From Candidatus Moraniibacteriota bacterium (GTDB lineage: Bacteria > Patescibacteriota > Minisyncoccia > Moranbacterales > GWC2-37-73): DNA of 64,000 nucleotides. Below, in pieces: positions 420-33,199 of the stretch. The DNA lies in the NCBI GenBank assembly GCA_013336225.1, contig JAAXUC010000002.1, forward strand, positions 74,634 through 138,633, given 5' to 3'. How positions within the stretch are numbered: position 1 is the stretch's first letter; the number at the start of each line of letters is the position of its first letter. The notes beneath the pieces were generated by a model. That model did no database searches. It had not been told where the DNA came from and saw only the letters and a program-made list of their open reading frames with translations. The position numbers were made by a program, and so were the translations under genes.

Positions 420-558
420 TATTATCTAGCGAAACGAGCGAAATGATTTGTCAGCAGACAAGCATTTCCGAGTGAGCGACGATACCAAAAGGTTTAATAC
501 CTTGAGGCTTGCCTCGAAAACCCAGGGGGTCTAGGGCTCGCCCTGGGGTATTGACACC
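420..558 (+). repeat. Family A structured repeat, copy 1 (~138 nt, three hairpins)
   Basis: About 90% identical to the reverse complement of 7101-7238 and clearly homologous to 33061-33199. It contains three hairpins: GAAATGATTTGTC-AGC-AGACAAGCATTTC, TTGAGG-CTTG-CCTCGA and CAGGG..CCCTGG. Confidence 0.75.
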
Positions 559-560
559 TT

Positions 561-863
561 TTATTTTTCTCCGTCTATTTTGCGCACGATGTCGCGCATG
601 AGCAGGACGCCAGAGAGAAAGCAGATAGTGAAGAGCATACGCAGGATTTTCACGGCTAGCGTGAAAATAAGAGCATTGTCCGACACATAAAGATTGGTAA
701 CTTCGGCAAATAGAAGAAAAATGATGGCTGCGAGAAAAAATTTGTAGGAAATGTCCAATTCTTTTTCAACTCGCCAAACCACGCCGGCAGTATAGATGAT
801 AGAGAGAGCTAGGGCTCCAATGGTAATGGCGTTGATGGTGAGCAGTAATGTTTGATTATCCAT
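561..863 (-). CDS. Small integral membrane protein (3 predicted TM helices), hypothetical
   Basis: 100-aa ORF, strongly hydrophobic. It abuts the stop of the upstream 484-aa gene on the same strand. Confidence 0.45.
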   Translation of the reverse strand: MDNQTLLLTINAITIGALALSIIYTAGVVWRVEKELDISYKFFLAAIIFLLFAEVTNLYVSDNALIFTLAVKILRMLFTICFLSGVLLMRDIVRKIDGEK

Positions 864-864
864 A

Positions 865-2319
865 TTAGTATTTTCTTTTTTTAAGACTTATAAGGCCGAG
901 TGAGGCTAAATTTTCTTCTGTAATTTGACGTAGCGCATGCAGTGAGAGCCAATATTCACGAGAGAATAAAAATAGCCATAGTAGTAGGAGTAATAATGAT
1001 ATGGAAGCAATCAGACCGAGAGCGCTTAAAAATTCAGGATAGGTCATGAAGATTGACCCTCCCAGATTTAAAAATGGCTTTGGAGTGACGTGAAAGATGC
1101 GCTCTTGCTCAATGATAAAAGTGTCAAATTTCAAACTAGTTTTCAATTTGTAGGTTCCATCTTTTAGATAGGCAGGAAGCATGACGGTTTTTGCAATATT
1201 TTCTCCAGCAGCAAGAGTGATGGAATCTTCGTTGGTGAGAATTGAATTGCCTTTAGCATCGAGAACTTGATAGGCGAGAGCTGCAACTCGGCCATCGTAT
1301 TTTGAATCAAGCTCTTGGATTGAAACAATTGTGTCCAGATTTTTGCCTTGTACAAGAGAGTCATTTTTTAGTTCCAGCGAATAGGTGACTGGCTTGAGCT
1401 CTGGTTTTTCTTCTGGAATGACTGCTGGAGTGGTGTGATTTTTTGTGGGAGTTGATGGCAGCTGGGTTGTTGCTTTTTCTTTAGACTGGGCATGCTTGTT
1501 ATTATTGTCATTGTCATCTGTTGATGTCGAAGCAGCTTTAAAATCTATAATGAAATATAATTCTCCTGACACTGTTCGTGAAGAATCAAGTGGGTCTTGC
1601 ACCGTTACAAAAAGAGTGTGCACGCCATTGGTAATATCAAGCGGTGGATCCCAGCTCCAATAACCATTAAGATTGGCCAGCGTGTCACCATAAATTATTT
1701 GAGTGCTGTGAATTTGAAGATTGATGATTCCATAGGGAATGTTGGTGGTTCCTGAAAAACGTGGGCGCGTGGTGTCCAGAATGGTGTAGAAGCCATCATT
1801 GGGGCTTAGCGGTGCTAAGGTGATGGTTGGAGTTTCAGAATTGCTGCCACATAGTTGTGGAGAAGTGATGGTCACCGAATCTGAATCAGCAAAACCATTG
1901 CCCATTGGTCCATGTGCCGTCACGACATATGAATAGGTTGTATTGATAGTTGTATTTGTATCTAAATAGGAATTAAATGCTGTGCCCGTGACCAGCGGGA
2001 AGCCATTTCGATAGATATCAAAAAATGTTGAGTTTTCATCACTTGGCCAAGTTAGGTTGATGTTGAATTCGCCGGTATTGCAAGTTCCTGTAATTGAAAC
2101 AATTGGCTTGATGGGCGGAGCAAGAACTTTGGCAGTGATGGTCACAGCTTCATCAGCCAGAGCACTAAACTTGCTTTTAATGTCAGAGAATAAAAATTCA
2201 GGGCTATATGAAACTGACAAGATGACATAGGAAAAAAATAAAACCATGGAAACAATCGCATGCAAGCGACGAATTTTTTTCAACAGGATCTTCTTTTTGT
2301 TTTTACGTGGTTTTTTCAT
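865..2319 (-). CDS. Surface-anchored protein, hypothetical
   Basis: 484-aa ORF. It has a Lys-rich N-terminal tail with a signal-anchor helix, beta-rich Ig/fibronectin-like regions (inferred from composition), an acidic Asn/Asp linker and a C-terminal hydrophobic helix. Confidence 0.55.
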   Translation of the reverse strand: MKKPRKNKKKILLKKIRRLHAIVSMVLFFSYVILSVSYSPEFLFSDIKSKFSALADEAVTITAKVLAPPIKPIVSITGTCNTGEFNINLTWPSDENSTFFDIYRNGFPLVTGTAFNSYLDTNTTINTTYSYVVTAHGPMGNGFADSDSVTITSPQLCGSNSETPTITLAPLSPNDGFYTILDTTRPRFSGTTNIPYGIINLQIHSTQIIYGDTLANLNGYWSWDPPLDITNGVHTLFVTVQDPLDSSRTVSGELYFIIDFKAASTSTDDNDNNNKHAQSKEKATTQLPSTPTKNHTTPAVIPEEKPELKPVTYSLELKNDSLVQGKNLDTIVSIQELDSKYDGRVAALAYQVLDAKGNSILTNEDSITLAAGENIAKTVMLPAYLKDGTYKLKTSLKFDTFIIEQERIFHVTPKPFLNLGGSIFMTYPEFLSALGLIASISLLLLLLWLFLFSREYWLSLHALRQITEENLASLGLISLKKRKY

Positions 2320-2423
2320 GAGGATATCAACTTGTTTGCATGACTGAATTTATATTGACATTATACATCAAAAAGTAACTCGCGGCTATTGGAAAAAAAG
2401 CCTAAAAGAGTTATAATTTTTGT

Positions 2424-3485
2424 ATGTTAAGAGAAATAAAAATAAAATTAAAAAAACTTGCCAGTTTTTTATCCACATCAACCTTTGTTTTTTTATTGGT
2501 GATGCCAGCCAGCACGAATTATCAATTGAAGGATTTTGGTTTTGGCAGTGGAGGAACTAGCACGGCTTCATCCGGAAATTATTCTTTGGATGCAATTGCT
2601 GGTGAAATCAGCAGTGGGAAATTGTCTTCAGCAACTTTTGGAATTGGCAGTGGTTTGACCTATACAAATCAAGCCAATGTGCCGGTGGCGCCAACATTCA
2701 CCAATCCAAACAATTATTACAATAAATTGCAGCTCATCATTGATACTTCAGGAAATCCAGCTGATACTAAATTTGCCATCGCAATCAGCACGGACAACTT
2801 TGCAACCATTACAAACTATGTGCAAAGCGACAACACGGTTGGCACGGTTTTGGGAATTGAAGATTATCAAGCATATGCCAGCTGGGGAGGTGCAAGTGGA
2901 TTCTATGTTATTGGTCTGGCTGCCAATACAACATATCAAGTGAAAGTCAAAGCCATGCAAGGAAAATTCACTGAGACTGGATTTGGTTTGGTTTCAACTG
3001 CAGCCACCGTGAATCCGACAATGAGTTTTGGAATCAACATCAACACGATAAATTTCGGAAATCTTCCAGCGGGAACAGTTGTGAATAGCCCTCAAAGTGT
3101 TACAGCTAGTTTTGCAACCAACGGAGAAACGGGAGGAAAAGTGTATATCATCGGAAAAAATGCTGGACTCTTGAGCGCCTCAAAGAGTTATACAATTGCT
3201 TCAGCGACAGCTGATTTGTCTTCAGCTGCAGTGCAGGGCTTTGGCGCGCAGGGAACAAGTGCCACGCAAAGTTCTGGCGGCCCACTTTCAATTGTGGCGC
3301 CATACAACGTTGCTGCCAGCAATGTTGGAATTGTTGACACTGCTGTGCGGGAAATTTTTTCTTCTGCCAATCCAATTGTTGGTGGCAGCGGAATCTTTTT
3401 GCTCAAAGCAAAATCATTGGCACTGACTCCAGCCGCCAGTGATTATAGTGAGATTTTAACGGTGATTGCCTCAGGAAGCTTCTAA
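2424..3485 (+). CDS. Secreted Thr/Ser/Gly-rich surface protein, paralog 1
   Basis: 353 aa with an N-terminal signal peptide and a low-complexity T/S/G/A-rich body. The C-terminus DYSEILTVIASGSF is conserved with the next gene (DYTDTLTVIAAGRF). Confidence 0.6.
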   Translation: MLREIKIKLKKLASFLSTSTFVFLLVMPASTNYQLKDFGFGSGGTSTASSGNYSLDAIAGEISSGKLSSATFGIGSGLTYTNQANVPVAPTFTNPNNYYNKLQLIIDTSGNPADTKFAIAISTDNFATITNYVQSDNTVGTVLGIEDYQAYASWGGASGFYVIGLAANTTYQVKVKAMQGKFTETGFGLVSTAATVNPTMSFGININTINFGNLPAGTVVNSPQSVTASFATNGETGGKVYIIGKNAGLLSASKSYTIASATADLSSAAVQGFGAQGTSATQSSGGPLSIVAPYNVAASNVGIVDTAVREIFSSANPIVGGSGIFLLKAKSLALTPAASDYSEILTVIASGSF

Positions 3486-3701
3486 TCATCAATTATAGCT
3501 GATGTATTCTTTGAAAAGTTATCCACAGATTGCATAAAATGCATAGACGACTTTTCAAAAAAATGCTATAATTTAATTAATAAATGTTTCTATAAAAAAT
3601 AAAAAAAATAAGCACTTCGTGCTTGAAATTGCGTCGTTCGTCAGCAAATAAAAATATTGCACAATGCTTTCATTTGCTGACTCGCTAGCAATTATAAAAA
3701 T

Positions 3702-4778
3702 ATGCAACATAAAGTTGTAAAAAAAAGCTCAGTCCCGAATGTTTTGATGCTAGTTGTCATTGGTATTGCCACACTTGCTGTTTCTGGCAAAGCTCAAGCT
3801 GGTGGTCTCGGCAATGTTTCTGTGCGATTGGATCGAATGATGGCCGGTCAGGCAACTGGGGGCACAATTTGTGCTCGTCCAATTACTACAGATACTGAAA
3901 CATTAGTGAAAATAACATTCCCAACAGGTTTTACAGTGAATCCTACCGCTGCTAACTGGACGACAAGTGTTACAAATCTGCCGGCTAATCCAGCTGGCTA
4001 CACTGTGGCTGCTTGGCCTGGTATAGGTGCAGCTGCTCAAACGGCATCTGGACAGGATGTGACTTTTGTTAGTACTGATTTGACACCAGGAACCACAATC
4101 TATTGTTTTAATTTTTCAGGGACGACAACATTGACAACTGGCACCGCTTCAAATGCTTATGTTGGATCGGTGACAACGCAAAAAGCTGGCCCAACAACGA
4201 TTGATTCATCTTCTTATAATCTTTCAACAATTACTGACGACACAATTACTATTACGGCTGTGGTGCCACCAAATTTTAGTTTTTCAATCGCTGGTGGCAA
4301 TACCGATAGCTTTACAGGAAATCTTTCTACCAGTGTTGTTTCTACTACTGGAAAGACAGCTACAATTACCACTAATGCTGCCAATGGCTGGGTTGCTTGG
4401 GTAAAAAGCGCCAATGCTGGACTCACTTCGGCCAGTGCTTCAGCTAGTATCGCCACCGCAGGAACAGTCAATAACTCTACTGCTGATTCTGACTTAGCAA
4501 GTACTACGGGTTATGTTTTGGACGTATCCTTTACAGATAGCGCAACTGCTACAACCGGAACAGTGAGTCAAGCTGCTGGATATGGAGCTGAATATGCAGG
4601 AAACGGGACGAGTTCAGGAGGAACACTTTCAACAACATTTCAACCCATTGCTGCTGCAAGCGGTGTTACTGATGGAGATACGATAACTTTAAAAGAAAGA
4701 GCAAAAATTAGCGCTATTCAAAAAGCTGCTAATGACTATACTGATACGCTGACTGTGATTGCTGCTGGAAGATTTTAA
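3702..4778 (+). CDS. Secreted Thr/Ser/Ala-rich surface protein, paralog 2
   Basis: 358 aa. Signal peptide MQHKVVKKSSVPNVLMLVVIGIATLAVSGKAQA. It has the same composition and C-terminal motif as the 2424-3485 product. Confidence 0.6.
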   Translation: MQHKVVKKSSVPNVLMLVVIGIATLAVSGKAQAGGLGNVSVRLDRMMAGQATGGTICARPITTDTETLVKITFPTGFTVNPTAANWTTSVTNLPANPAGYTVAAWPGIGAAAQTASGQDVTFVSTDLTPGTTIYCFNFSGTTTLTTGTASNAYVGSVTTQKAGPTTIDSSSYNLSTITDDTITITAVVPPNFSFSIAGGNTDSFTGNLSTSVVSTTGKTATITTNAANGWVAWVKSANAGLTSASASASIATAGTVNNSTADSDLASTTGYVLDVSFTDSATATTGTVSQAAGYGAEYAGNGTSSGGTLSTTFQPIAAASGVTDGDTITLKERAKISAIQKAANDYTDTLTVIAAGRF

Positions 4779-4806
4779 ATAAACACATCAACAGCTCGTT
4801 CGTGTA

Positions 4807-4834
4807 AAAACCTCCCAATTCGGAGGTTTTTTAT
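4807..4834 (+). terminator. Rho-independent terminator
   Basis: AAAACCTCC-CAATTC-GGAGGTTTTTTATTT. Confidence 0.6.
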
Positions 4835-4861
4835 TTGTTAAAGAGCCATTTATAGTGTATA

Positions 4862-5848
4862 TTCAATATGAGATATAATAAAAAACTAACAAATCCCCGT
4901 ATGTCATTTAAGAAAACAATTGCCTTGATAGCCATCACAGTGTTGCTTAGTTTTGGAGAAACAACATCTGCTCAAACCACTGCAACCGACCTGCGCTTAA
5001 CAAGTTCACCACTCCCAATTAATCTGAAGGTTATTCCAGGCACCACCGTTTCAGCTAATATTAAAGTTAAGAATGATGGCATCAGTGCGGAAAACATCAG
5101 AATAACTTTGATGAAGTTTAAAGCTGATTCTGCTACGGGTGCTCCAAATCTTAGCGAAAGGCAAGCGGGAGATGACTACTTTGATTGGGTGACTTTTTCT
5201 GAAGATAAATTTGTGCTGCCAGTTAATGAATGGAAAACAATCACGGCAACCTTTAATGTTCCAGCCTCAGCCTCATTTGGATATTATTATGCAGTAGTTT
5301 TTACTCGCGCGCAGGAAAATGTTACTCAAAGTGAAAAGCAAACGATACTTGTCGGTGGTATGGCGACCTTGGTTTTGCTGGAAGCTCAAGTTCCAAATGC
5401 AAAAAGAGAAATCCAAGTGACAGATTTTTCAGTGGACAAATCAATGTTTGAATTTTTGCCTGCCACTTTTTCAATCAAACTAAAAAACACTGGCAATGTG
5501 CATCTCGCTCCACGCGGAAATATTTTTATCAGTAAAAGCGATCAAAAGGATGTTGCAATTTTGGAAGTCAATCCAAACAAAGGGTCAATCTTGCCTGATT
5601 CGCCAAGAACGTTTGAGGAAAGTTGGTCGGATGGTTTTCCATATTACATCGACAAGCAAGCAGACGGAAAAGTTGTTATTGATGGTAATGGTAAAACAGA
5701 ACAAGAATTGAAATGGAACTTTGCAGAGGCCTCAAAACTCAGATGGGGAAAGTATACCGCCAAGATGCTGCTTGTGTATGATGATGGCAAACGGGATGTT
5801 CCCGTTGAAGCAGAAGTGAGTTTTTGGATTATGCCATGGAGAGTGATT
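4862..5848 (+). repeat. Tandem direct repeat, unit 1 (987 bp)
   Basis: Apparently 100% identical to 5969-6955 (offset 1107 bp). Translated products and internal small ORFs are identical. Confidence 0.85.
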
Positions 5849-5956
5849 ATTTATGCAGTCTTGATTCCTTTGATTCCTGCCTTGTCCGTATACTTTTTCA
5901 TGAAATGGAGAATGAAAAAAGCTATGAATAGAGGGAAAAAGAATAAAAAGAAATAG
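4868..5956 (+). CDS. Secreted protein with C-terminal TM anchor and basic tail (NTGNVH-PRG family), tandem copy 1
   Basis: 362 aa with a signal peptide and a beta-rich body. The first 326 residues are identical to the next gene. C-terminal anchor IYAVLIPLIPALSVYFF followed by KKAMNRGKKNKKK. Confidence 0.7.
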   Translation: MRYNKKLTNPRMSFKKTIALIAITVLLSFGETTSAQTTATDLRLTSSPLPINLKVIPGTTVSANIKVKNDGISAENIRITLMKFKADSATGAPNLSERQAGDDYFDWVTFSEDKFVLPVNEWKTITATFNVPASASFGYYYAVVFTRAQENVTQSEKQTILVGGMATLVLLEAQVPNAKREIQVTDFSVDKSMFEFLPATFSIKLKNTGNVHLAPRGNIFISKSDQKDVAILEVNPNKGSILPDSPRTFEESWSDGFPYYIDKQADGKVVIDGNGKTEQELKWNFAEASKLRWGKYTAKMLLVYDDGKRDVPVEAEVSFWIMPWRVIIYAVLIPLIPALSVYFFMKWRMKKAMNRGKKNKKK

Positions 5957-5962
5957 ATGTGA

Positions 5963-7096
5963 ATGGTGTTCAATATGAGATATAATAAAAAACTAACAAA
6001 TCCCCGTATGTCATTTAAGAAAACAATTGCCTTGATAGCCATCACAGTGTTGCTTAGTTTTGGAGAAACAACATCTGCTCAAACCACTGCAACCGACCTG
6101 CGCTTAACAAGTTCACCACTCCCAATTAATCTGAAGGTTATTCCAGGCACCACCGTTTCAGCTAATATTAAAGTTAAGAATGATGGCATCAGTGCGGAAA
6201 ACATCAGAATAACTTTGATGAAGTTTAAAGCTGATTCTGCTACGGGTGCTCCAAATCTTAGCGAAAGGCAAGCGGGAGATGACTACTTTGATTGGGTGAC
6301 TTTTTCTGAAGATAAATTTGTGCTGCCAGTTAATGAATGGAAAACAATCACGGCAACCTTTAATGTTCCAGCCTCAGCCTCATTTGGATATTATTATGCA
6401 GTAGTTTTTACTCGCGCGCAGGAAAATGTTACTCAAAGTGAAAAGCAAACGATACTTGTCGGTGGTATGGCGACCTTGGTTTTGCTGGAAGCTCAAGTTC
6501 CAAATGCAAAAAGAGAAATCCAAGTGACAGATTTTTCAGTGGACAAATCAATGTTTGAATTTTTGCCTGCCACTTTTTCAATCAAACTAAAAAACACTGG
6601 CAATGTGCATCTCGCTCCACGCGGAAATATTTTTATCAGTAAAAGCGATCAAAAGGATGTTGCAATTTTGGAAGTCAATCCAAACAAAGGGTCAATCTTG
6701 CCTGATTCGCCAAGAACGTTTGAGGAAAGTTGGTCGGATGGTTTTCCATATTACATCGACAAGCAAGCAGACGGAAAAGTTGTTATTGATGGTAATGGTA
6801 AAACAGAACAAGAATTGAAATGGAACTTTGCAGAGGCCTCAAAACTCAGATGGGGAAAGTATACCGCCAAGATGCTGCTTGTGTATGATGATGGCAAACG
6901 GGATGTTCCCGTTGAAGCAGAAGTGAGTTTTTGGATTATGCCATGGAGAGTGATTGGTGCAGGAATCTTTGTTGCAATTTTTGTTTTCATTGGTCTTAAA
7001 TCAACTTCACAAAATTTCTGGAGAAGAATTAGGACAATGTTTGGCAAAGAAAAAGAAATCATTGGCAAGAAAAAACCTATCAATAAGAAGAAATAA
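5963..7096 (+). CDS. Secreted protein with C-terminal TM anchor and basic tail (NTGNVH-PRG family), tandem copy 2
   Basis: 377 aa. The likely true start is the ATG at 5975, which is homologous to the copy-1 start. Identical to copy 1 through ...SFWIMPWRVI, then a different anchor GAGIFVAIFVFIGL followed by a K-rich tail. Confidence 0.7.
   Translation: MVFNMRYNKKLTNPRMSFKKTIALIAITVLLSFGETTSAQTTATDLRLTSSPLPINLKVIPGTTVSANIKVKNDGISAENIRITLMKFKADSATGAPNLSERQAGDDYFDWVTFSEDKFVLPVNEWKTITATFNVPASASFGYYYAVVFTRAQENVTQSEKQTILVGGMATLVLLEAQVPNAKREIQVTDFSVDKSMFEFLPATFSIKLKNTGNVHLAPRGNIFISKSDQKDVAILEVNPNKGSILPDSPRTFEESWSDGFPYYIDKQADGKVVIDGNGKTEQELKWNFAEASKLRWGKYTAKMLLVYDDGKRDVPVEAEVSFWIMPWRVIGAGIFVAIFVFIGLKSTSQNFWRRIRTMFGKEKEIIGKKKPINKKK
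5969..6955 (+). repeat. Tandem direct repeat, unit 2 (987 bp)
   Basis: See unit 1. Divergence begins right after codon I of PWRVI in both copies. Confidence 0.85.
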
Positions 7097-7100
7097 AAGA

Positions 7101-7238
7101 GTATTAATACCCCAGGGCAAGCCCTGGACCCGATGGGTTTTCGAGGCAAGCCTCGAGGCATTAAACCTTTTGGTATCGTCACTCACTCGGAAATGATTGT
7201 CTGCTGACAAATCATTTCGCTCGTTTCGCTAGATAATA
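7101..7238 (-). repeat. Family A structured repeat, copy 2 (inverted relative to copy 1)
   Basis: The reverse complement aligns end-to-end with 420-558. Differences fall in hairpin stems and are compensatory (TCGAGG/CCTCGA versus TTGAGG/CCTCGA). Confidence 0.75.
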
Positions 7239-7307
7239 GAACATACGTATCTGCAGACAACAAAAAATACCTAAATTGTTTTAGGTATTTTTTGTTTTCT
7301 GCTATAA

Positions 7308-8245: not shown

Positions 8246-8366
8246 GTCATTCCGGGCTTGACCCGGAATCCAGGTTCAATACTGTAGGCTTTGTGTGGTA
8301 ACAATTTGTGATAATATTTATACTCTCATTGTAATATCCTGGATTCCCGCTTTCGCGGGAATGACA
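8246..8366. repeat. Family C paired-hairpin element, copy 1
   Basis: GTCATTCCGGG-CTTGA-CCCGGAATCC, a ~70-nt spacer, then GGATTCCCGC-TTTC-GCGGGAATGAC. The outer GTCATTC/GAATGAC and CCAG/CTGG ends are complementary. A second copy lies at 45665-45746. Confidence 0.6.
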
Positions 8367-8406
8367 AATACAGCAATTTGTTTCAAGAATTAAGTTTGTT
8401 AATAAT

Positions 8407-9009
8407 ATGGCAGAACAAAAATCAACATTTAAAAAAGTTAGGAAATATTTTTTTTGGATAATCTTAATCTCTACCTTAGTGGTGGGATTTTTCTTTTGGC
8501 GACAACTTCAAAAGCCAGCTTCAGGTCGAATCAAAATGGTCACTCAAGCTCCAGCCTCAGTTATTCCTGTTGATGGTGCATTAGAACGTTTCGAGGGAGA
8601 ATATTTTTCTTTTGCACATGATGCAAAATATTTGCTCAAAAATCATCGAAAAGATTTTGAAAACAATGGCGTTATTCTTGAGAGTGCTTTTTTCGCCCAA
8701 GCAGATGTCAATTCAAAAAAGATTGCCGTCACAGTGGAAGATATTAGGGGGAGAGGCATGGCGGATACGGGAAACTTTTTGCTGCGCGAAAAAAATCCAA
8801 AAGTGTATGCGCAGGAAAAATTTGACATCAATGGTGCCGAGGGAATTTCTTTTTCGACCACAAATGAATCGGGTTTTTTGGAAAAAGTTTTCTTCATTCC
8901 AAAAGGTGAATATGTGGCAGAATTTGCCTTCACTCAGCCAATAACAGAGGATGGAAGCTCTGAATTGGAAATGACGGAAATTTTGAAAAGCATTCAATGG
9001 AAAAAGTGA
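8407..9009 (+). CDS. Membrane-anchored hypothetical protein
   Basis: 200 aa with one N-terminal TM helix and no recognisable domain. Confidence 0.5.
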   Translation: MAEQKSTFKKVRKYFFWIILISTLVVGFFFWRQLQKPASGRIKMVTQAPASVIPVDGALERFEGEYFSFAHDAKYLLKNHRKDFENNGVILESAFFAQADVNSKKIAVTVEDIRGRGMADTGNFLLREKNPKVYAQEKFDINGAEGISFSTTNESGFLEKVFFIPKGEYVAEFAFTQPITEDGSSELEMTEILKSIQWKK

Positions 9010-19852: not shown

Positions 19853-21556
19853 ATGAAATATTTGGCTTTCACAAATCAAGATATTGAAAAAATTCTTGGT
19901 GAGTCTGGCGTGGTTGATGAGGCAAAGGTTGCCAAAGCAGTGGCTAGTGCCAAGCTGGAAAATAGCTCACTTGCAGATGTCGCTGTCAATCAGGGGCTTG
20001 TTACTAATGAAGAATTGTCCAGATTGGTGGCGGATGCACTGGATATGCCATTTATGTCACTTGCTGGAAAACTTCCAACCAAAGAGACTTTGGCACTTAT
20101 TCCTGAATTAGTGGCCCGCAAGAAGCGCGTGGTGCCTTTTAGGTTGGATGAAAAGGGATTACATGTTGCAATGGCGGATCCCACTGATCTTGAAACACTC
20201 AATTTCATTGCTCGCAGGGAGGGCATGCATGCCATTGCCTATGCCACCACTGATCAAGATATTGATACTGTCCTGGAGCTGTATGGCGAAGGGTTGAACA
20301 ATTTGTTGGAAATAAAATCTGAAAAGTCTGGAAAAGTTGCTGGCAGCGAGGATGATTCTTCCATTATTCAGATTGTGAAAAAAGTTATTGTGGAGGCGTA
20401 TCGCAATCGCGCCTCTGATATTCATATTGAACCGCGCGAAGAAAGCGACAGTGTGATCAGATTTCGTATTGATGGAATTTTGCATGACGTCACCTTGATT
20501 CCAATGGAATTGCATGCCCAAATCATTTCGCGCATCAAAGTGATGGCAAAGTTGCGAACTGATGAACATCAAACTCCACAGGATGGAAAAATTTCTTTCA
20601 AGCTGGAGGATGACAATTCTGAAATGGATTTGCGTGTTTCAATCGTGCCGGTGACAGAAGGAGAAAAAGCAGTGCTGCGTCTTTTGGCTGAACGTTCTCG
20701 TCAATTTTCATTGGCTGGCATTGGCCTTAGTGAAAATAATCTGAAAAAAATTCAAGAGGCTTATGAAAAACCATATGGCATGGTTTTGTCGACTGGACCG
20801 ACTGGTTGTGGAAAAACCACAACATTGTATGCCATTTTGAAACTTTTGAATAAACGGCACGTGAACATCATGACCATTGAAGATCCGGTGGAATATGACA
20901 TTGATGGAGTGAGCCAAATTCAAGTCAATCCCAAAGCAAAGCTTACTTTTGCCTCAGGTTTGCGCAGCATTTTGCGTCAAGATCCGAACATCATTTTGGT
21001 GGGAGAAATTCGTGATCAAGAAACGGCTGGCATTGCAATCAATTTGGCGCTTACGGGACATCTGGTTTTATCAACCTTGCATACTAATGACAGCGCCACG
21101 GCCATTCCACGTTTCATTGATTTGGAAGTGGAACCATTTCTGATTGCTTCGACTGTCAGTGTCATCATCGCGCAACGTTTGGTGCGTAAAATCCATGATG
21201 GCTGCAAAGTGAGCGAGGAATTTAAAGCGGCTGACATCGCCAAGAAAATTGGTTGGGAGCTTACTGAAAAAATGTTTGGTGTCAAAAAATCCAATCCGGA
21301 TGGTACTGTGCGACTGTATCAAGGCAAAGGTTGTGAAGCTTGTCAGGGAACAGGTTTTCAGGGCAGAATCGGAATTTTTGAAGTGATGGTCATGGATGAT
21401 CAAATGCGACAAGCAATTTCTCAAAACAAAGATGCGGGCTTTTTGGAGGAGTTGGCGAAAAAGTCAGGCATGATTGGTCTCTTGGAAGATGGCTTGGGAA
21501 AAGTTAACATGGGAATTACAACTATTGATGAGATTTTGGGTGCCACGAAATTATAG
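19853..21556 (+). CDS. pilB: Type IV pilus assembly ATPase PilB/GspE family (locus 1)
   Basis: 567 aa with an N-terminal GspII_E-like domain. Walker A is GPTGCGKTT. The ATPase core begins ASDIHIEP and a tetracysteine motif follows (C...C...CEACQGTGFQGR). Confidence 0.85.
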   Translation: MKYLAFTNQDIEKILGESGVVDEAKVAKAVASAKLENSSLADVAVNQGLVTNEELSRLVADALDMPFMSLAGKLPTKETLALIPELVARKKRVVPFRLDEKGLHVAMADPTDLETLNFIARREGMHAIAYATTDQDIDTVLELYGEGLNNLLEIKSEKSGKVAGSEDDSSIIQIVKKVIVEAYRNRASDIHIEPREESDSVIRFRIDGILHDVTLIPMELHAQIISRIKVMAKLRTDEHQTPQDGKISFKLEDDNSEMDLRVSIVPVTEGEKAVLRLLAERSRQFSLAGIGLSENNLKKIQEAYEKPYGMVLSTGPTGCGKTTTLYAILKLLNKRHVNIMTIEDPVEYDIDGVSQIQVNPKAKLTFASGLRSILRQDPNIILVGEIRDQETAGIAINLALTGHLVLSTLHTNDSATAIPRFIDLEVEPFLIASTVSVIIAQRLVRKIHDGCKVSEEFKAADIAKKIGWELTEKMFGVKKSNPDGTVRLYQGKGCEACQGTGFQGRIGIFEVMVMDDQMRQAISQNKDAGFLEELAKKSGMIGLLEDGLGKVNMGITTIDEILGATKL

Positions 21557-21593
21557 ATATATATAAAAAACAAGAGCTATGCTAGATTAGGTG

Positions 21594-21725
21594 CTTTTGA
21601 TTTCTTATTTCCTTTTTTAGGAACATTTTTGACTGAAATTCATAGTCAAAAAACTTACTCGCTCTCGCTGCGTAGGTCCTAAAAAGAAAATAAGCAAATC
21701 AAAAGGTGAGTTAATTTTTGAAATC
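21594..21725 (+). repeat. Family B structured repeat, copy 1 (intergenic pilB-pilC)
   Basis: Outer arms TTTGATTTCTTATTTCCTTTTTTAGGAAC and GTAGGTCCTAAAAAGAAAATAAGCAAATCAAAA are complementary. The inner hairpin is TTTTTGACTGAAATTCATAGTCAAAAA. The core is CTCGCTCTCGCTGC. Homologous to 24344-24474 and 30273-30416. Confidence 0.7.
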
Positions 21726-21730
21726 ATATA

Positions 21731-22816
21731 TTGCCCATAATCAAAAAAATAAATATGAAAATATTCTCAGGACTCTCATACTTAGAAAAACTTTTTTTCA
21801 TCAAGCATCTTTCGATGTTTTTGAAATCAGGCATTCCGCTGGATGAAGCACTTGAAACATTGGCTGAAGGTGAGCAGAAAAGTTCTATTAGCAAAGTCGC
21901 GTTGTCAGTCAGGGCTCAGATTCAAAATGGGCAGCCACTGCATAAGGCTTTTGCCAAGGAATCCAGTTCATTTGATCTATTTTTCATTTCCATGGTGGAA
22001 ATTGGAGAAGTGTCTGGCACGCTGGAAAAAAGTTTGGATTTTTTGGTGGCCAAAATCACCAGAGAGGCGACGCTGCGAAAAAAAATTCAAGCCATGCTAT
22101 ATTATCCAGCTGTGGTGGTTGGCGCTGCAATCGTGATTGGAGGTTTTGTGAGTTTTTTCGTGTTGCCAAAATTGGGGGACATGTTCAAATCGTTTGATGT
22201 GCAATTGCCTCTTATAACCAGGATATTATTGGCTTTTGCTAATTGGGTGAAAGATTATGGTGCAATTGCGATGATATCTTTCATTGCGTTGCTGATTGTT
22301 TTTCGTGTGCTTATCGCTGCTTGGACGCGTCTGCGATTTTTTTGGCATAAAATCAAATTCAACCTGCCCATTACAGGCAAAGTCATCTTGGGCTCAGAGC
22401 TTTCGGCATTTTTTCGAAACATTGGAATCATGCTTTCCAGTGGACTTTCTTTGGAATATGCACTTGCCACTGAATCTAAAATTTCAGACAACCTTGTCAT
22501 GAAAAAAGTGGCAGCTGATTTGCACATGGCGGTGACTCAGGGGCGGCGCATGGGGGAAGAGTTGAAAAGTGAAAACAACACGATTTTCCCTCAGCTTTGC
22601 GCAAGAATGATTACGGTGGGTGAGATGTCTGGAAAACTGGAAGAATCATGCATGTATTTGGCTGATTATTTTGAAGATGAAACTGAGGTGCAAGCAAAAA
22701 ACATGGCTGCAATTTTGGAGCCAGCCTTGCTTTTAGGCATCGGAGCGATCGTGGCTTTCATCGCAATGGCTGTTATTTTGCCTATCTATTCTTTGACTGG
22801 TTCCATTCGTCGCTAA
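21731..22816 (+). CDS. pilC: Type IV pilus platform protein PilC/GspF family (locus 1)
   Basis: 361 aa with two GspF-like repeats and 3-4 TM helices. It sits immediately downstream of pilB. Confidence 0.75.
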   Translation: MPIIKKINMKIFSGLSYLEKLFFIKHLSMFLKSGIPLDEALETLAEGEQKSSISKVALSVRAQIQNGQPLHKAFAKESSSFDLFFISMVEIGEVSGTLEKSLDFLVAKITREATLRKKIQAMLYYPAVVVGAAIVIGGFVSFFVLPKLGDMFKSFDVQLPLITRILLAFANWVKDYGAIAMISFIALLIVFRVLIAAWTRLRFFWHKIKFNLPITGKVILGSELSAFFRNIGIMLSSGLSLEYALATESKISDNLVMKKVAADLHMAVTQGRRMGEELKSENNTIFPQLCARMITVGEMSGKLEESCMYLADYFEDETEVQAKNMAAILEPALLLGIGAIVAFIAMAVILPIYSLTGSIRR

Positions 22817-22834
22817 GATGTTGAAAAAAGTTAA

Positions 22835-23290
22835 ATGTCAAAAGTTAAATGTCAAATATTGCATAAGCAGGGATTTACTTTAATCGAATTACTTTTGGTG
22901 ATTGCGCTTGTTTTGATCGTGAGTGTTCCAACCGCTGCTTTTTCCACGCATTTCATTTATCAAATGTCTGTGCGCGATGCCTCTGAAGGTTTGGTTGGAA
23001 TGCTGCAAGAAGCGCAAGCACTTTCAATGCTGGGCAAAGAGAATTCAGCTTGGGGCGTGAAAAAGCAATCAGGAAAATTGATTCTTTTTCGGGGAGAAGA
23101 TTTTTCAAATCGCGATCAAGCATTTGATCAAGCGTTGAGCATAAATTCGCATGTGAATATGATAGGTTTTGATGAAATGAGTTTCTCGCGCTATGGAGGA
23201 TTTCCTTTGCAGCCAACTGGCTCAATTGTTGTGGCTTGGGGGAATGTGAACGAAATATTTAAATTAAATTCGGAAGGAGTTTTTGAATAA
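22835..23290 (+). CDS. Prepilin-type minor pilin (pseudopilin)
   Basis: ...HKQG then FTLIELLLVIALVLIV: a class III signal with G/F cleavage and Glu+5. Confidence 0.7.
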   Translation: MSKVKCQILHKQGFTLIELLLVIALVLIVSVPTAAFSTHFIYQMSVRDASEGLVGMLQEAQALSMLGKENSAWGVKKQSGKLILFRGEDFSNRDQAFDQALSINSHVNMIGFDEMSFSRYGGFPLQPTGSIVVAWGNVNEIFKLNSEGVFE

Positions 23291-23298
23291 TTATCAGC

Positions 23299-23769
23299 AT
23301 GAAAAAAGGAATATCACAAAAGCGAGGTTTTTCGGTGCTAGAAGTCATTTTAGCAGTGGCACTTTTTTCCATTTTTTCCACTACTGCTGTTTCCTTTGTG
23401 CTTGAATCGATGCAAGTGCAAGCTCAAGCCAGTCAATTTGAAAATGCCTCACTGTATGCCGAGGATGGCTTGGAAAAAATAAGAGCAGTGCGAGATGTTT
23501 CATTTGATGAATTGGTGGATGGGTCTGAATATGGATTGAACTTCAATGCTGGTAAGTGGGAATTGAAAAATGGCAGTGATGAATCTGAAATATACAAAAG
23601 AATCATCACAATCGAAACAGCCAAAAGAGACGGTGAGCTGAATATTGTTTCGGAAGACGGAGCAGATGATTTGAATATGAAAAAAATAATAGTAGATGTT
23701 TCCTGGAAAAATGCCACGGGCGAAAATGTTTCAACTCAGCTAGTGACTTATCTTTCTCGTTGGAAGTAA
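23299..23769 (+). CDS. Prepilin-type minor pilin (pseudopilin)
   Basis: MKKGISQKRG then FSVLEVILAVALFSIF: a class III signal. Confidence 0.7.
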   Translation: MKKGISQKRGFSVLEVILAVALFSIFSTTAVSFVLESMQVQAQASQFENASLYAEDGLEKIRAVRDVSFDELVDGSEYGLNFNAGKWELKNGSDESEIYKRIITIETAKRDGELNIVSEDGADDLNMKKIIVDVSWKNATGENVSTQLVTYLSRWK

Positions 23770-24293
23770 AAAATATGACAAATAAAACAAAAAAGGGCTT
23801 TACCTTCATTGAAACTATATTATATATAGCAATTTCGTCAGTTGTGGTTGGCGTGCTTTTTGCCTATGGTTGGAATATGGTCAGCGCGCGCACTAAAGCT
23901 GCCACCATGCGAGACACTGCTGCAAATGCCAGGCTCATCATGTTGCGCCTCAACAATGAAATTCGCATGGCAACTGATATTGATAAAAATAATTCTGTTT
24001 TTGAGGGCGAAAATGGAAAAATATCGCTGACCACTCCTCAAGGAAAGATCATGATCGAATCAATTGGAGATAGGATTTCCATTGCCAGAGGGGAAAATTC
24101 CCCGCAATTTCTTTCCGGAGAAAATGTGCGCGTGAGAAATTTTCAATTATCCAAACAAGAAAATGACGCTGGGAAAGTTCAATATGTGGGATTTTCTTTC
24201 ACAGTGGAAGCCTATTATCCTGAAGCGCTTAACAGTTATGAATACAATTATTCATTGCCAATTAATTCGGGAGCGGAGGTGAGAAGTCAGTAA
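23760..24293 (+). CDS. Prepilin-type minor pilin (pseudopilin)
   Basis: ...NKTKKG then FTFIETILYIAISSVVVG: a class III signal. The start is probably the ATG at 23775. Confidence 0.7.
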   Translation: MEVKNMTNKTKKGFTFIETILYIAISSVVVGVLFAYGWNMVSARTKAATMRDTAANARLIMLRLNNEIRMATDIDKNNSVFEGENGKISLTTPQGKIMIESIGDRISIARGENSPQFLSGENVRVRNFQLSKQENDAGKVQYVGFSFTVEAYYPEALNSYEYNYSLPINSGAEVRSQ

Positions 24294-24343
24294 AATTAAA
24301 TTATGTATGCATATAAAGGATGCATTGTTCCGTCATTAAGTAT

Positions 24344-24474
24344 TTTGCTTTGCTTATTTCCTTTTTTGACACATTTTTGACTGAAAATCATAGTCAAAAA
24401 ACTGATTCGCTCTCGCTGCATAGGGTCTAAAAAGAAAATAAGCAAAGCAAAATGGTGTGGATTAATTTTTGAAA
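24344..24474 (+). repeat. Family B structured repeat, copy 2 (between minor-pilin genes)
   Basis: Same arm/hairpin/core arrangement as 21594-21725, with scattered substitutions. Confidence 0.7.
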
Positions 24475-26507: not shown

Positions 26508-26508
26508 T

Positions 26509-26815: not shown

Positions 26816-26858
26816 CTTTTCGTGCTTAGATTAAAGCATAATTGTAAGATAATCAGAT

Positions 26859-27503: not shown

Positions 27504-27522
27504 ATTTTAGAAATTTAAAAAT

Positions 27523-28659: not shown

Positions 28660-28810
28660 GCATTGACGCTTAACTTTCTCTCAAATGCGTGCTATGCTTT
28701 GATGGTTGTAAAGTGGAAAAAAGATAAAAATTAAGCAGAGGTATGCACCTGAATTGAAAGGGTATTTGGATTGGTCGCGTATGAATTCATGTATACAGCT
28801 GGCGGGTTAA

Positions 28811-30135: not shown

Positions 30136-30213
30136 AAACATATAATCATGCAATCATACAAGCATTTAAACATGTAAGTGTAAGCATGAATGCAAAATGC
30201 AGAGAGCTCAAAT

Positions 30214-30248
30214 AAAAAAAGTCATGATGGAAATCATGACTTTTTTTG
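30214..30248 (+). terminator. Rho-independent terminator
   Basis: AAAAAAAGTCATGAT-GGAA-ATCATGACTTTTTTTGG. Confidence 0.7.
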
Positions 30249-30272
30249 GTTGCAGGACATTTTTTGATATCT

Positions 30273-30416
30273 TGTTTTGCTTATTTCCTTTTTTAGGAAC
30301 ATTTTTGACTGAAAATCAATAGTCAAAAAACTTACTCGCTTCCGCCAGCTGGCGGAGCATGCGTAGGTCCTAAAAAGAAAATAAGCAAATCAAAAAGTGC
30401 GAGTTAATTTTTGAAA
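30273..30416 (+). repeat. Family B structured repeat, copy 3 (with a 14-bp palindrome insertion)
   Basis: Same arms and inner hairpin as copies 1 and 2. The core CTCGCT is replaced by TCCGCCAGCTGGCGGAGCAT, which contains the perfect palindrome CCGCCAGCTGGCGG. Confidence 0.7.
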
Positions 30417-30430
30417 CCATATATTATTTA

Positions 30431-31627: not shown

Positions 31628-31837
31628 GTATTTTGTGTATCGTATTTAGTATCTTGTATGGATGCAAAACGCAGAAATGCATCAAGTATTTATAGCACGT
31701 AATTTGGCAAAAGAAAAGGGCAAAACAATGAAATATGCTTAATTATTGCTTATTTTCATAATTTACGGTAGTATGTTTGAGTTAAAGGAAATTAATTAAC
31801 AAGGATGTATCTTATACAAAATACTAAATACAAATTT

Positions 31838-32890
31838 ATGGCTTTACAAATAGGAATCGTGGGATTGCCAAATGTGGGGAAATCAACCCTTTTTAAGGCA
31901 CTTACCAAAAATCCCGTGGAAATCAGCAACTATCCATTCTGCACCATTGAACCCAATGTTGGCGTGGTGAAAGTGCCAGACGAACGTTTGGACAAGCTTT
32001 CGGTGATGTCTGACACGGAAAAAATCGTGCCAGCCGTGGTGGAATTTGTGGATATTGCTGGAATTGTGAAAGGTGCCAGCGAGGGGGAGGGACTAGGAAA
32101 CAAATTTCTGGCTAATATTAGGGAAGTTGATGCCATTGCACAAGTTGTGCGAGTTTTTGAAAATTCCAACATCACCCATGTGCACAACAAAGTTGATCCC
32201 TTGGAGGACATTGAAATCATAAACACGGAACTTATTTTGGCTGACTTGGAAACCGTGACCAAAAGAATGGAGAGACTTGCCAAGGATGCGCGTGGAAATG
32301 ACAAAGATGCTCAATTTAAGCTGATAATTGCCGAAAAAATCAAGCATAATTTGGAAAAGGGGTTGTTGGCGAACACGGCTGACATTGATTTTGACGATGC
32401 AAACACTAAAATTGCCGTCAGGGAATTGCAATTGCTAACCATGAAGCCATTTTTATATGTCTATAATGTTTCTGACATCAATGAACAGTTGCCTGATATT
32501 TTGGAGAACAGGTTGCATGTGAAACTTGATATCAAGATTGAAGAGGAATTGATTGAAATGAGTGAAGAGGAAAAAGCTGAAATGGAACTAACTTCACACA
32601 TCAATGATTTGATAGTGAAAGCCTATGACCTTCTGGGACTGCAGACTTTCATCACCACTGGCAAAATTGAAACCCGCGCTTGGACCATTAAAAAGGGTGC
32701 CACTGCGCCAGAAGCAGGAGCTGCCATCCACACCGACTTTCAAGAAAAGTTCATTCGCGCTGACGTGATCATGTGGGACAAACTTTTGGAAATTGGATCT
32801 TGGGGAAAAGCCAAAGAATTGGGCGCCGTCAAAACTGTCGGCCGGGATTATGTGATGACAGACGGGGAGGTGGTTGAATTCAAGGTCTAA
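31838..32890 (+). CDS. ychF: Ribosome-binding ATPase YchF (Obg-family GTPase with TGS domain)
   Basis: [23 protein letters not shown] at the N-terminus, then ...[10 protein letters not shown]... and a C-terminal TGS-like region. The ORF track starts 11 codons upstream (31805). Confidence 0.85.
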
Positions 32891-32909
32891 AAAGTTTTCT
32901 TCAATAGTT

Positions 32910-32933
32910 TCCTCTCCTTTGATAAGGAGAGGA
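32910..32933 (+). terminator. Weak hairpin downstream of ychF
   Basis: CCTCTCCTT-TGAT-AAGGAGAGG with no clear T-run. Confidence 0.25.
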
Positions 32934-33060
32934 TGTCATGTATTCATGACAGGTGAGGTCGGATCGTAAGTAGTTTTTCAACTTTTTATAAAATATGCAT
33001 TAAAAACTGTTGGCCATGTGCTGGCAGTTTTTTTTGTTTAAATAGCGCTCAAATAGTTTT

Positions 33061-33199
33061 TATTATCGAACGTAGCGAGCGAAATGATTTGTCAGCAGAC
33101 AAAATCATTTCCGAGCGAGTGATGATAATAAATTGGTTAATATCTCGCGGCTTGCCGCGGAAACCCAGAGGGTTCGGGGCTTGCCCCGGGGTTAATACC
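33061..33199 (+). repeat. Family A structured repeat, copy 3 (diverged)
   Basis: Collinear with copy 1. All three hairpins are retained through compensatory substitutions (TCGCGG-CTTG-CCGCGA; CGGGGC-TTG-GCCCCG). Confidence 0.7.

Follow-up and report, generated by a model that had tools for sequence, protein, structure and literature searches.

The 64-kb stretch of DNA analysed here (hereafter the window) carries three copies of Family A, a real structured repeat of ~146 nt that is non-coding and occupies varied intergenic sites in Candidatus Moranbacteria (CPR/Patescibacteria). Family A is most likely a small mobile element, possibly IS200/IS605-like, and any function is a candidate only. We favour, at a probability of roughly 0.55, a non-coding, non-autonomous dispersed element that has spread by insertion. 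The window copies and their parts are as follows:

420-564, plus strand: copy 1, whole element (sequence, repeat finder, and covariance model at 177 bits)
420-486, plus strand: copy 1, domain 1 (91.9 bits with the domain-1 model)
423-426 and 481-484: copy 1, domain-1 base helix TATC/GATA, followed by GC/GC and AC/GU with G/A-rich internal loops between
440-468: copy 1, apical hairpin H1, loop AGCA
487-564, plus strand: copy 1, domain 2, four-way junction
487-501 paired with 547-562: copy 1, closing helix P1
502-517: copy 1, hairpin H2, loop CTTG
520-530: copy 1, mini-hairpin
531-546: copy 1, hairpin H3, loop CTCG
7093-7238, minus strand: copy 2, whole element (covariance model, 178 bits), with domain 1 at 7238-7172 and domain 2 at 7171-7093
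33061-33206, plus strand: copy 3, whole element (covariance model, 163 bits), with domain 1 at 33061-33129 and domain 2 at 33130-33206

The three copies noticed in the sequence-only reading were recovered in three ways. The 22-mer GAAATGATTTGTCAGCAGACAA occurred exactly three times in the window and was absent from 100 shuffles. The repeat finder matched 417-567 to 7091-7241 (151 nt, 90% complementary) and both to 33058-33210, and the covariance model, run with filters off, returned only three matches in the 64 kb, scoring 163-178 bits. The positions given earlier were correct, but the 3' ends had been placed short, and the element extends ~8-10 nt further 3'. It runs from TATTATC to TTTTAT, with copy 3 ending in TATTTAT; copy 1 has the 5' flank TTT(TAT), starts with TATTATC, and closes with CCTTTTAT. 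Copy 3 represents a diverged subfamily with 77-81% identity to the other copies.

Family A folds into two dissimilar domains; the sole likeness is between H2 and H3, which both belong to the right half. Domain 1 forms an irregular hairpin whose internal loops are G/A-rich and conserved, and its hairpin 1 is closed by the base helix TATC/GATA, GC/GC, and AC/GU. A K-turn was considered for these loops, which may contain tandem G·A pairs, and was rejected on sequence inspection because there is no 3-nt bulge. Domain 2 is a four-way junction whose long closing helix, AAAAGGTTTAATACC / GGTATTAATACC(C)TTTT, encloses hairpins 2-4, namely two G(CUUG)C hairpins and a mini-hairpin of the pattern CCC-nnn-GGG. 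The closing helix is flanked by A4 and T4. In copy 3 the two flanks changed jointly to AAAT/ATTT, consistent with their pairing with each other and not forming a free U-tract. The cloverleaf is the minimum free energy fold of the diverged copy L059, while that of copies 1-3 is an alternative in which the 5' half of H2 pairs with the 3' half of H3. We rejected the alternative since L059 and L062 cannot form it yet retain the cloverleaf.

The fold proposed from the sequence alone had contained three hairpins, all of which are retained here; it was incomplete, as the fourth small hairpin, the domain-1 base helix, and the junction-closing helix had been overlooked. The compensatory series reported for H2 stood as described, with TTGAGG/CCTCGA in copy 1, TCGAGG/CCTCGA in copy 2, and TCGCGG/CCGCGA in copy 3. 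For the third stem, CGGGGC/GCCCCG was correct in copy 3, but the CAGGGC given for copy 1 is really TAGGGC/GCCCTG, which contains a U·G pair, and its loop in that copy is CTCG instead of CTTG. Hairpin 1, said to be identical in all copies, reads GACAAGCATTTC in copy 1, producing an A·G mismatch.

Pairing statistics were computed over 48 pairs in 13 distinct aligned copies, consisting of the window copies and 10 from other genomes. Across these, 95.5% of cells were paired. Compensatory double changes were found in 16 of the 48 pairs; shuffling gave 5.1 ± 1.6 (0/500), and slid controls never exceeded 5. For domain 1 alone, with the diverged modules included, double changes affected nine pairs and 17 cells, against 3.2 and 3.7, respectively. 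In L059, L062, and L071, H1 and H2 have been swapped for unrelated sequences that still pair. The earlier proposal of selection on pairing thus holds and is strengthened by the 10 copies from other genomes; the additional copies preserve the stems, contrary to the refuting condition set beforehand. The pairing is also strand-specific. G·U occurred in 31 cells (19 pairs) but A·C in only four cells (four pairs), which identifies the strand written out in the sequence-only reading as the one that folds, and this top strand folds 6-13 kcal/mol better than its complement. The data support selection on pairing in a single-stranded nucleic acid.

We identified 11 further independent copies in metagenomes and metagenome-assembled genomes (MAGs) of Candidatus Moranbacteria, giving 14 independent insertions together with the window, with covariance-model scores of 110-178 bits. 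A scan of genome contigs with the hairpin-1 pattern returned 15 stretches, of which only L011 (MAG ELA218) was real; the other 14 were chance or coding matches in unrelated phyla. Similarly, just nine of 41 stretches from the metagenome scan were real by the covariance model. No copies were found in viral contigs searched with three patterns or in phage and plasmid collections searched with blastn, suggesting that Family A is not an obvious phage or plasmid element. Its distribution is best explained by restriction to a clade of Candidatus Moranbacteria. Copy density was three in the 64-kb window and zero to one per 21-kb syntenic locus in relatives. The Rfam comparison that had been proposed gave no match (4227 models, Rfam 15): at the gathering threshold the whole window yielded tRNA-Pro only, and in E-value mode copies 1 and 3 gave only noise (E ~0.5-8). 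ARAGORN found no tRNA or tmRNA in the copies, and full-text literature searches returned no description of such an element in CPR bacteria or Moranbacteria.

We also found modules resembling domain 1 by itself:

3590-3700, minus strand: possible distant relative, a domain-1-like module with a weak score of ~19-20 bits, left out of the family
L074 2327-2426, minus strand, and L042 2037-2125, minus strand: same architecture as 3590-3700

The module at 3590-3700 has a base helix AATTGC/GCAATT and loops UAGCGAG / CGAACGAC, and it carries a small hairpin followed by T8 in place of domain 2. For two of the domain-1-like variants, 3-5 nt separate the beginning of the module from the start codon of a gene that diverges from it.

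The sequence of Family A is conserved far above the neutral level. Copies in different genomes at non-orthologous sites were 82-94% identical, whereas third codon positions of ychF were only 45-68% identical. Such identity where synonymous sites are nearly saturated implies that something reads the sequence as well as the fold, the candidate readers being a transposase, a nuclease, or a host RNA-binding protein. Copies within a genome were no more alike than copies between genomes, so the family does not have the appearance of a recent burst.

All 14 copies are intergenic, and nearly all adjoin the 3' end of a gene. As had been noticed before, their orientation relative to neighbouring genes varies: copy 2 and L018 each adjoin a single gene 3' end, to which they are antisense, and most others are co-oriented. 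In copy 1, copy 2, L038, and L071, four independent cases, the TAA of the convergent gene coincides with the same bases of the terminal TTTTAT. In copy 1 the last TTA (561-563) is the antisense of the TAA stop of the minus-strand ORF 561-863, and in copy 2 the plus-strand ORF 5963-7096 has its TAA stop in the terminal TTA (7096-7094, minus strand), the element lying between this stop and a hairpin with a T-run at ~7256-7290. At the other end, mnmA runs three codons into the 5' end of the element and stops at its TAG. Several copies begin 0-20 nt after a terminator T-run; copy 3, in the gap separating ychF from a histidine-kinase gene, lies 17 nt past the ychF terminator (hairpin at 33002-33032 and T-run). 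In L023, glmS starts 7 nt past the 3' end of the element, inside an apparent operon. An exact-protein look-up returned no record for YchF or the 377-aa protein, and the 100-aa ORF matched only a 3-kb contig that ends inside the element.

Alignments of the ychF-kinase and thiI intergenic regions revealed presence and absence of the element, with flanks too diverged to fix the junctions. The ychF-kinase site is occupied in the window only, and relatives have no element there. At the site 3' of thiI, L038 and L059 carry the element in the same orientation as thiI, and L062 and L071 carry it inverted; in the window, L058, L061, L067-L070, and L074 this site is either vacant or taken by another repeat. 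The 5' flank was TTAT in 11 of the 14 copies, CTAT in two, and TTAG in one, and TTTAT preceded 10 of the 14. The 3' end was TTTTAT in 13 of 14, while 5'-flank positions -4 to -6 were variable, which excludes a duplication longer than 3-4 nt. There may be a fixed TAT/TTAT duplication, and the TTAT may be either target sequence or part of the element. No terminal inverted repeats (TIRs) were detected when the first 40 nt were compared with the reverse complement of the last 40 nt (local scores 5-6; shuffle mean ~6, with 63-95% of shuffles scoring equal or higher). Strand specificity, sharp ends, lack of TIRs, and differing occupancy of orthologous sites are thus features of the family, with the exact ends putative.

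The mobile element that we favour would insert into AT-rich intergenic DNA, typically just after TTAT/TTTAT, and this targeting would often place it on or beside a stop codon or just past a terminator hairpin. One strand, that of the sequence-only reading, would have to fold into the irregular hairpin with G/A-rich internal loops plus the four-way junction, and this fold may be the substrate of the copying or moving machinery. A single-stranded DNA (or RNA) intermediate would presumably be handled in trans by an enzyme encoded elsewhere. Insertions would be tolerated at gene ends because of the stop codons near the element ends and the helix flanked by A4/T4. The nearest mechanistic model may be the 'peel-and-paste' transposition of IS200/IS605, which acts 3' of a short motif, on one strand, and with neither inverted repeats nor target duplication. 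IS200/IS605 elements insert 3' of a transposon-adjacent motif such as TTTAT without duplication, as single-stranded DNA with folded ends, and have gene-less derivatives termed PATEs (PMC10055086).

Other dispersed repeats share fewer features with Family A. REP/BIME/REPIN sequences, mobilised by RAYT, are likewise intergenic, structured, conserved across relatives, and often located at 3' ends or between convergent genes. However, REPs are GTAG-headed palindromes of 20-40 nt that number in the hundreds, whereas Family A is ~146 nt long with two different domains and low copy number, and GTAG is present in copy 3 only. TIR-type MITEs (Correia/CREE, ERIC, RUP, and Rickettsia RPE) resemble Family A in their 100-170 nt length, strong folding, tolerance at gene ends, and supply of stop codons, but they possess TIRs, usually a TA or longer duplication, and one long hairpin, while Family A has no inverted repeats.

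The evidence leans towards the mobile element on account of presence and absence at orthologous sites, sharp ends, stop-codon overlap, and the lack of a conserved promoter. Nevertheless, both classes named in the sequence-only reading, a REP/MITE-like element and an sRNA gene family, remain live. No transposase, HUH nuclease, reverse transcriptase, or RAYT gene was found within the window, and the ~0.5 Mb examined revealed no longer element with domain 1 and domain 2 as its boundaries; nor did the domain-1-only and whole-family models reveal a domain-1...domain-2 pair enclosing a gene. The low apparent copy number and the lack of a recent-burst pattern also count against mobility. Flanking GC skew in element orientation was positive for nine copies and negative for five, a bias weaker than strict insertion into the lagging-strand template predicts. 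In addition, the two-domain fold, the G(CUUG)C tetraloops, and the G/A-rich loops are at least as typical of a functional RNA.

The leading alternative, possible though improbable in our judgement, is a multi-copy sRNA gene family whose copies are paralogous genes or 3'-UTR-derived sRNAs and not insertions, with domain 1 possibly functional (binding protein or RNA) and domain 2 possibly an elaborated Rho-independent terminator built on the A4/U4-flanked helix. Family A shares with terminator-bearing sRNA genes, including 3'-UTR-derived ones, a structured domain on the 5' side and, after it, a helix ending in a U-rich tail. The distant variants (3590-3700(-), L074, and L042) have the classic sRNA layout of a domain-1-like module plus a plain terminator hairpin and T-run. 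Low copy number, the absence of excess similarity within genomes, conservation across species well above neutral, and a strand-specific fold with many G·U pairs fit this reading as well, as do the G(CUUG)C tetraloops, which are a class known to be stable in RNA. However, the upstream flanks are unrelated, and promoter-like matches occur at chance level. The sole conserved -10-like hexamer, TATTAT, overlaps the covarying base helix and so cannot be the promoter of an RNA containing that helix. Copies 0-20 nt past a T-run and variants 3-5 nt from a divergent start codon leave no room for a promoter. A consensus terminator scan called no site inside any of the three window copies, and the joint change of the flanks in copy 3 points to pairing instead of a free U-tract. 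There is no Rfam family match, positions differ between relatives, and four convergent genes stopping at the same base of the element are more easily explained by insertion than by gene arrangement.

A narrower form of mobility, which we hold doubtful, would make Family A a PATE mobilised in trans by a Y1 HUH TnpA; the preceding TTAT might then serve as the transposon-adjacent motif and the terminal TTAT as the transposon-encoded motif, perhaps with an omega-RNA-like scaffold. PATEs and Family A are alike in being small and non-coding, in lacking TIRs, and in lying next to a short motif, and they appear to share folded ends, use of one strand, and the absence of a variable target duplication; TTAT stands before 11 of 14 copies and at the end of 13, and the excess of G·U over A·C (31 against 4) agrees with strand-specific pairing. 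The transposon-adjacent motif of ISGst2 is TTTAT, and PATEs often carry omega-RNAs (PMC10055086). However, no tnpA or tnpB was found near any copy, and the window and the examined loci yielded no full-length insertion sequence sharing these ends. Left and right hairpins of IS200/IS605 resemble each other, while the two end structures of Family A are dissimilar and form two closed domains, one of them the four-way junction. The orientation bias is weak (9:5), and the domain-1 base helix directly follows TTAT, so that a DNA guide segment would have no evident place unless recognition involves H1 and H3.

We regard it as unlikely that Family A and its domain-1-bearing relatives make up a novel class of structured and mobile RNA/DNA of CPR bacteria. 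Such a class could consist of gene-less transposon ends doubling as omega-RNA-like guide scaffolds for a nuclease or recombinase whose gene lies elsewhere, or of trans-acting RNAs whose conserved G/A-rich internal loops could bind a lineage-specific protein. Either form would give Moranbacteria their first described structured non-coding RNA/mobile-element system.

Still less probable is a cis-acting RNA module kept by the host at gene ends, perhaps a bidirectional terminator, 3'-UTR stabiliser, or processing signal that was spread by recombination and might now be held in place by selection. The intergenic location of all 14 copies, nearly all beside a gene 3' end, the conservation well above neutral, and the A4/T4 flanks of the closing helix, which resemble those of bidirectional terminators, are consistent with such a role. 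However, the fold is specific to one strand, yet in copy 2 and L018 it runs antisense to the sole gene that ends alongside, and efficient termination in L023, 7 nt upstream of glmS, would silence that gene. Furthermore, orthologous genes in close relatives manage without the element, and several copies sit downstream of an ordinary terminator. Chance similarity or degraded coding remnants have virtually no standing: the 22-mer occurs three times against none expected, scores reach 110-178 bits with covariation along the helices, nearly every frame contains stops, and indels of 1-2 nt that break frame separate the copies. Hammerhead and other ribozymes, group II intron domain V, DGR template/variable repeats, attC sites, and TIGR arrays were rejected on grounds of Rfam, size, difference pattern, or tandem/array context.

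The tiny genomes of CPR/Patescibacteria are considered to contain little mobile DNA and few known regulatory RNAs. Family A, which we favour as a mobile element, rewrites gene ends in these genomes by supplying stop codons and altering the C-terminus of MnmA, and it breaks their short-read assemblies: contigs L057, L060, L072, and L073 terminate inside the element. The covariance model (R3) provides a handle for finding a partner enzyme and for testing RNA status in complete genomes and metatranscriptomes. The family also marks hot-spot intergenic sites contested by several repeat families, and in this genome other repeat families coexist with it at the same sites. TIR-type long-hairpin elements are present in the same window (297-412 and 21595-21708) and look quite unlike Family A.

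Moranbacteria carry a new structured repeat of ~146 nt, Family A, which is non-coding and strand-specific, is supported by covariation and is absent from Rfam. Three copies are present in the window, given here from one conserved end (TATTATC) to the other (TTTTAT; TATTTAT in copy 3):

420-564, plus strand: copy 1
7238-7093, minus strand: copy 2
33061-33206, plus strand: copy 3

The three copies are alignable over ~151 nt. A repeat finder matched 417-567 with 7091-7241 (151 nt, 90% complementarity) and linked 33058-33210 to both, and the 22-mer at the apex of hairpin 1 had three occurrences in the window against none in 100 shuffles. A covariance model trained on the copies and searched against the window with filters off recovered these three alone (163-178 bits), the other matches being opposite-strand echoes or weak hairpins. 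Alignment, repeat finder and covariance model thus confirm the three copies claimed by the sequence-only reading, which placed them correctly and drew their 3' ends 8-10 nt short. Hairpin 1, described there as the same in all copies, has an A·G mismatch in copy 1, and the third stem of copy 1, described as CAGGGC/GCCCTG, is TAGGGC/GCCCTG with loop CTCG.

RNAalifold and single-sequence folds gave two closed domains per copy, which in copy 1 lie as follows:

420-486, plus strand: domain 1, with a base helix, internal loops and an apical hairpin (H1)
487-564, plus strand: domain 2, a four-way junction with H2, a mini-hairpin and H3

Above the base helix of domain 1 (TATC/GATA), GC/GC and AC/GU pairs stand between internal loops of conserved sequence (5' strand UA-GC-GAA-AC-GA-GC, 3' strand C-GA-GU-GA-GC-GAC). 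Judging from these strands, tandem G·A pairs could form in each loop. The apical hairpin has the loop AGCA. Domain 2 is closed by a long helix, AAAAGGTTTAATACC / GGTATTAATACC(C)TTTT; H2 and H3 both have G(CUUG)C loops, and the mini-hairpin is CCC-nnn-GGG with a freely varying loop. A CC linker and 2-3 nt at each end are all that the fold leaves unpaired. In the minimum free energy structures of copies 1-3 the 5' arm of H2 pairs with the 3' arm of H3, an alternative that we rejected since it is impossible in the diverged copies of contigs L059 and L062, where the cloverleaf is kept. The L062 copy (8337-8513, Moranbacteria GW2011_GWC2_37_8; also L063-L065) is a 177-nt variant with an extra 35-nt hairpin (CCUGCCC...GGGCGGG) within the 3' side of domain 1, which thus becomes a three-way junction.

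Covariation was counted across 13 distinct copies after alignment to the model. In this alignment, which is model-fitted and so biased towards structure, and whose copies are mutually related, 95.5% of the cells were paired, and 16 of the 48 pairs (26 cells) showed changes on both sides; shuffles gave 5.1 ± 1.6 such pairs (0/500) and slid controls <=5. When domain 1 was aligned on a MAFFT basis together with three diverged modules, 9 such pairs and 17 cells were counted (shuffles: 3.2 pairs and 3.7 cells, 0/500). Domain 2 alone was weaker, with 4 pairs vs 1.6 in shuffles (12/500) and 93.7% of cells paired. Replacement of entire helices provides the strongest cases. H1, which is GAUUUGUC-AGCA-GACAAUC in most copies, is replaced by GAAAAU-AGUA-AUUUUU in L059 and by GAAAAU-GAA-UUUUCG in L071; H2 occurs as CUCGAGG/CCUCGA, CGCAGC/GCUGCG and UUGCA/UGCAA, and the base helix of domain 1 as UAUC/GAUA, UGUC/GACA and UUUC/GAAA. 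Domain 2 has A4/T4 flanks, which in copy 3 have jointly become AAAU/AUUU and are therefore part of the helix. Selection on structure, as proposed by the sequence-only reading, is supported and sharpened by these counts. An A·C mismatch on one strand is a G·U pair on the other; G·U (31 cells, 19 pairs) was far more frequent than A·C (4 cells, 4 pairs) in the copies, indicating that the strand first read is the folded one.

The window is ordinary chromosome, carrying thiI, ychF, two-component systems, two type IV pilus clusters, efflux pumps and Dus, and no transposase, HUH nuclease or reverse transcriptase was found within it. Homologues 90-96% identical to its YchF are annotated as Candidatus Moranbacteria. 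One scan of 185,579 species genomes returned a single real copy, in MAG ELA218 (L011), a Moranbacterium whose YchF is 93% identical to that of the window. A metagenome scan combined with the covariance model gave nine full copies, and syntenic contigs reached through YchF homologues gave three further full-length copies, some diverged (L059, L062, L071), and a variant in L074 with a plain hairpin in place of domain 2. With the proposed search of other genomes, the total stands at 14 independent insertions. No copies were found in the viral contigs, phages and plasmids searched, comparison with Rfam (also proposed earlier) returned no matching family, and the full-text literature searched held no description of a similar element in CPR or Moranbacteria. 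Four independently assembled Logan contigs end inside the element (L057 3069-3158; L060 1-74; L072 and L073 1-31), as is typical of repeats that break short-read assembly. Family A breaks short-read assemblies of Moranbacteria genomes and may therefore be under-represented in MAGs.

Between these genomes ychF DNA is 77-88% identical (L061 and L070, which represent the same population, excepted), with 45-68% identity at third codon positions, and intergenic flanks are unalignable. Canonical copies from different genomes and different sites are 82-94% identical; copy 3, L059 and L062 represent more distant subtypes (60-81%). Two copies in the same genome resemble each other no more than they resemble copies in other genomes. 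The high identity could reflect purifying selection on sequence plus pairing, and movement between lineages is another possible reading.

The two ends of the element show no inverted-repeat similarity beyond shuffles. Both are sharp, and flanks are unrelated except for a T-rich 5' flank, which carries TTAT in 11 of the 14 copies, CTAT in two and TTAG in one; the 3' end is TTTTAT in 13/14. In four independent cases the TAA of a convergent gene is the TTA within the terminal TTTTAT:

ORF 561-863: overlaps the end of copy 1
ORF 5963-7096: overlaps the end of copy 2
gene ending at L038:587: overlaps the end of the copy there
thiI in L071: overlaps the end of the copy there

The reading frame of mnmA in L017/L011 extends into the 5' end by three codons and terminates at the TAG there, glmS of L023 starts 7 nt past the 3' end, and several copies start 0-20 nt past a terminator hairpin and T-run. 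In the region 3' of thiI, Family A has the orientation of thiI in L038/L043 and L059/L060 and the opposite one in L062-L065 and L071; the window, L058, L061, L067-L070 and L074 are empty there or hold an unrelated long-hairpin repeat. Among the related loci compared, the ychF-kinase spacer carries Family A only in the window.

The insertion-like behaviour of the copies, their sharp ends, their close fit against stop and start codons and the lack of a conserved promoter upstream make a non-autonomous mobile element more likely than a group of sRNA genes. TATTAT, the sole conserved -10-like hexamer, overlaps the covarying base helix and so cannot drive an RNA containing that helix. sRNA genes are the less probable alternative. 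In their favour, distant variants join a domain-1-like module to a plain terminator hairpin, copy number is low, and the overall fold, its CUUG tetraloops and the G/A-rich loops with their possible tandem G·A pairs are RNA-like. Family A fails the tests for TIR-type (terminal inverted repeat) MITEs and for REPs. A coding sequence was rejected given stop codons in nearly every frame and the 1-2-nt indels that distinguish the copies.

For a mobile element, the closest mechanistic model would be the 'peel-and-paste' transposition of IS200/IS605 and their gene-less derivatives, PATEs. These lack inverted repeats and target duplication, use one strand with folded ends, and insert 3' of a short motif (TTTAT in ISGst2; PMC10055086). 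Family A likewise lacks inverted repeats and folds on one strand, and its candidate motif would be TTAT. The flank motif and the last four bases of Family A are both TTAT, so that a copy inserted beside the antisense of ATAA would restore a TAA stop, which would explain the four stop-codon overlaps. Unlike in IS200/IS605, the two end structures differ from each other. Orientation relative to GC skew is only 9:5 among the 14 copies, and the window and the examined loci yielded no TnpA, TnpB or full-length partner. These three points count against membership: Family A resembles a PATE and is at most a candidate member of that group. In kind it belongs to the bacterial interspersed structured elements, an already known class; it is a useful find, and a mildly unexpected one in CPR genomes, which are streamlined, and would be a surprise in kind only if it turned out to carry a guide RNA or to function in another way as an RNA.

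Domain-1-like modules without domain 2 suggest a wider modular superfamily:

3590-3700 of the window, minus strand: followed by a plain hairpin and T-run
L074 2327-2426, minus strand: followed by a plain hairpin and T-run
L042 2037-2125, minus strand: followed by a plain hairpin
L042 7388-7463, minus strand: no such hairpin noted

The plain hairpin of L074, AAAAAGUC-AGCA-GACUUUUU, reuses the hairpin 1 apex, and two of the modules lie 3-5 nt from the start codon of an opposite-strand gene. Upstream of copy 1, at a distance of 5 nt, is a MITE-like long hairpin (297-412, ~116 nt; z = -5.7 and -7.7) bounded by terminal inverted repeats of 23-30 nt (TTTTTGGTTTGAATGTTT... / ...AAACATTCAAACCAAAAA). 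On its minus strand, UAGCGAA ... GCGAGCG motifs recall the domain 1 loops. A second repeat family consists of long hairpins (~110-125 nt) whose ends are inverted repeats and which contain the motif GCGAGAGCGAG:

21595-21708, 24343-24456 and 30277-30399 of the window
L058 8500-8640

A member occupies the thiI 3' intergenic site in the window and L058, and Family A is found there in four other genomes, which makes the site an insertion hot spot.

Smaller repeats include the hairpin CTGGATTCCCGC-TTTC-GCGGGAATGACA in two intergenic regions (8339-8377 and 45719-45757, 87% identical), a tandem pair of CAAAACCCGTCACTCACGAGTGACAGGTAAAAAC hairpins (58197-58235 and 58242-58280, 90% identical) after an ORF ending at 58188, and a T-rich 56-nt direct repeat in two intergenic regions (36772-36827 and 59945-60000, 82% identical). 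Copy 2 stands at the end of an array of four tandem paralogous genes (2424-7096; 353-377 aa, weak Fn3-like matches). The last of these, the one whose translation was inspected, encodes a signal-like segment at the N terminus and a hydrophobic stretch at the C terminus. In the last two, 300 nt of the 5' part are 100% identical (4862-5161 = 5969-6268), pointing to a probable recent duplication or gene conversion. The two type IV pilus/T2SS-like clusters (19853-24293 and 34946-44258) contain PilB/T2SSE, PilC/T2SSF, several prepilin-like genes and PilM/N, and their paralogous pilB genes are 71% identical (20775-21024 vs 35880-36129).
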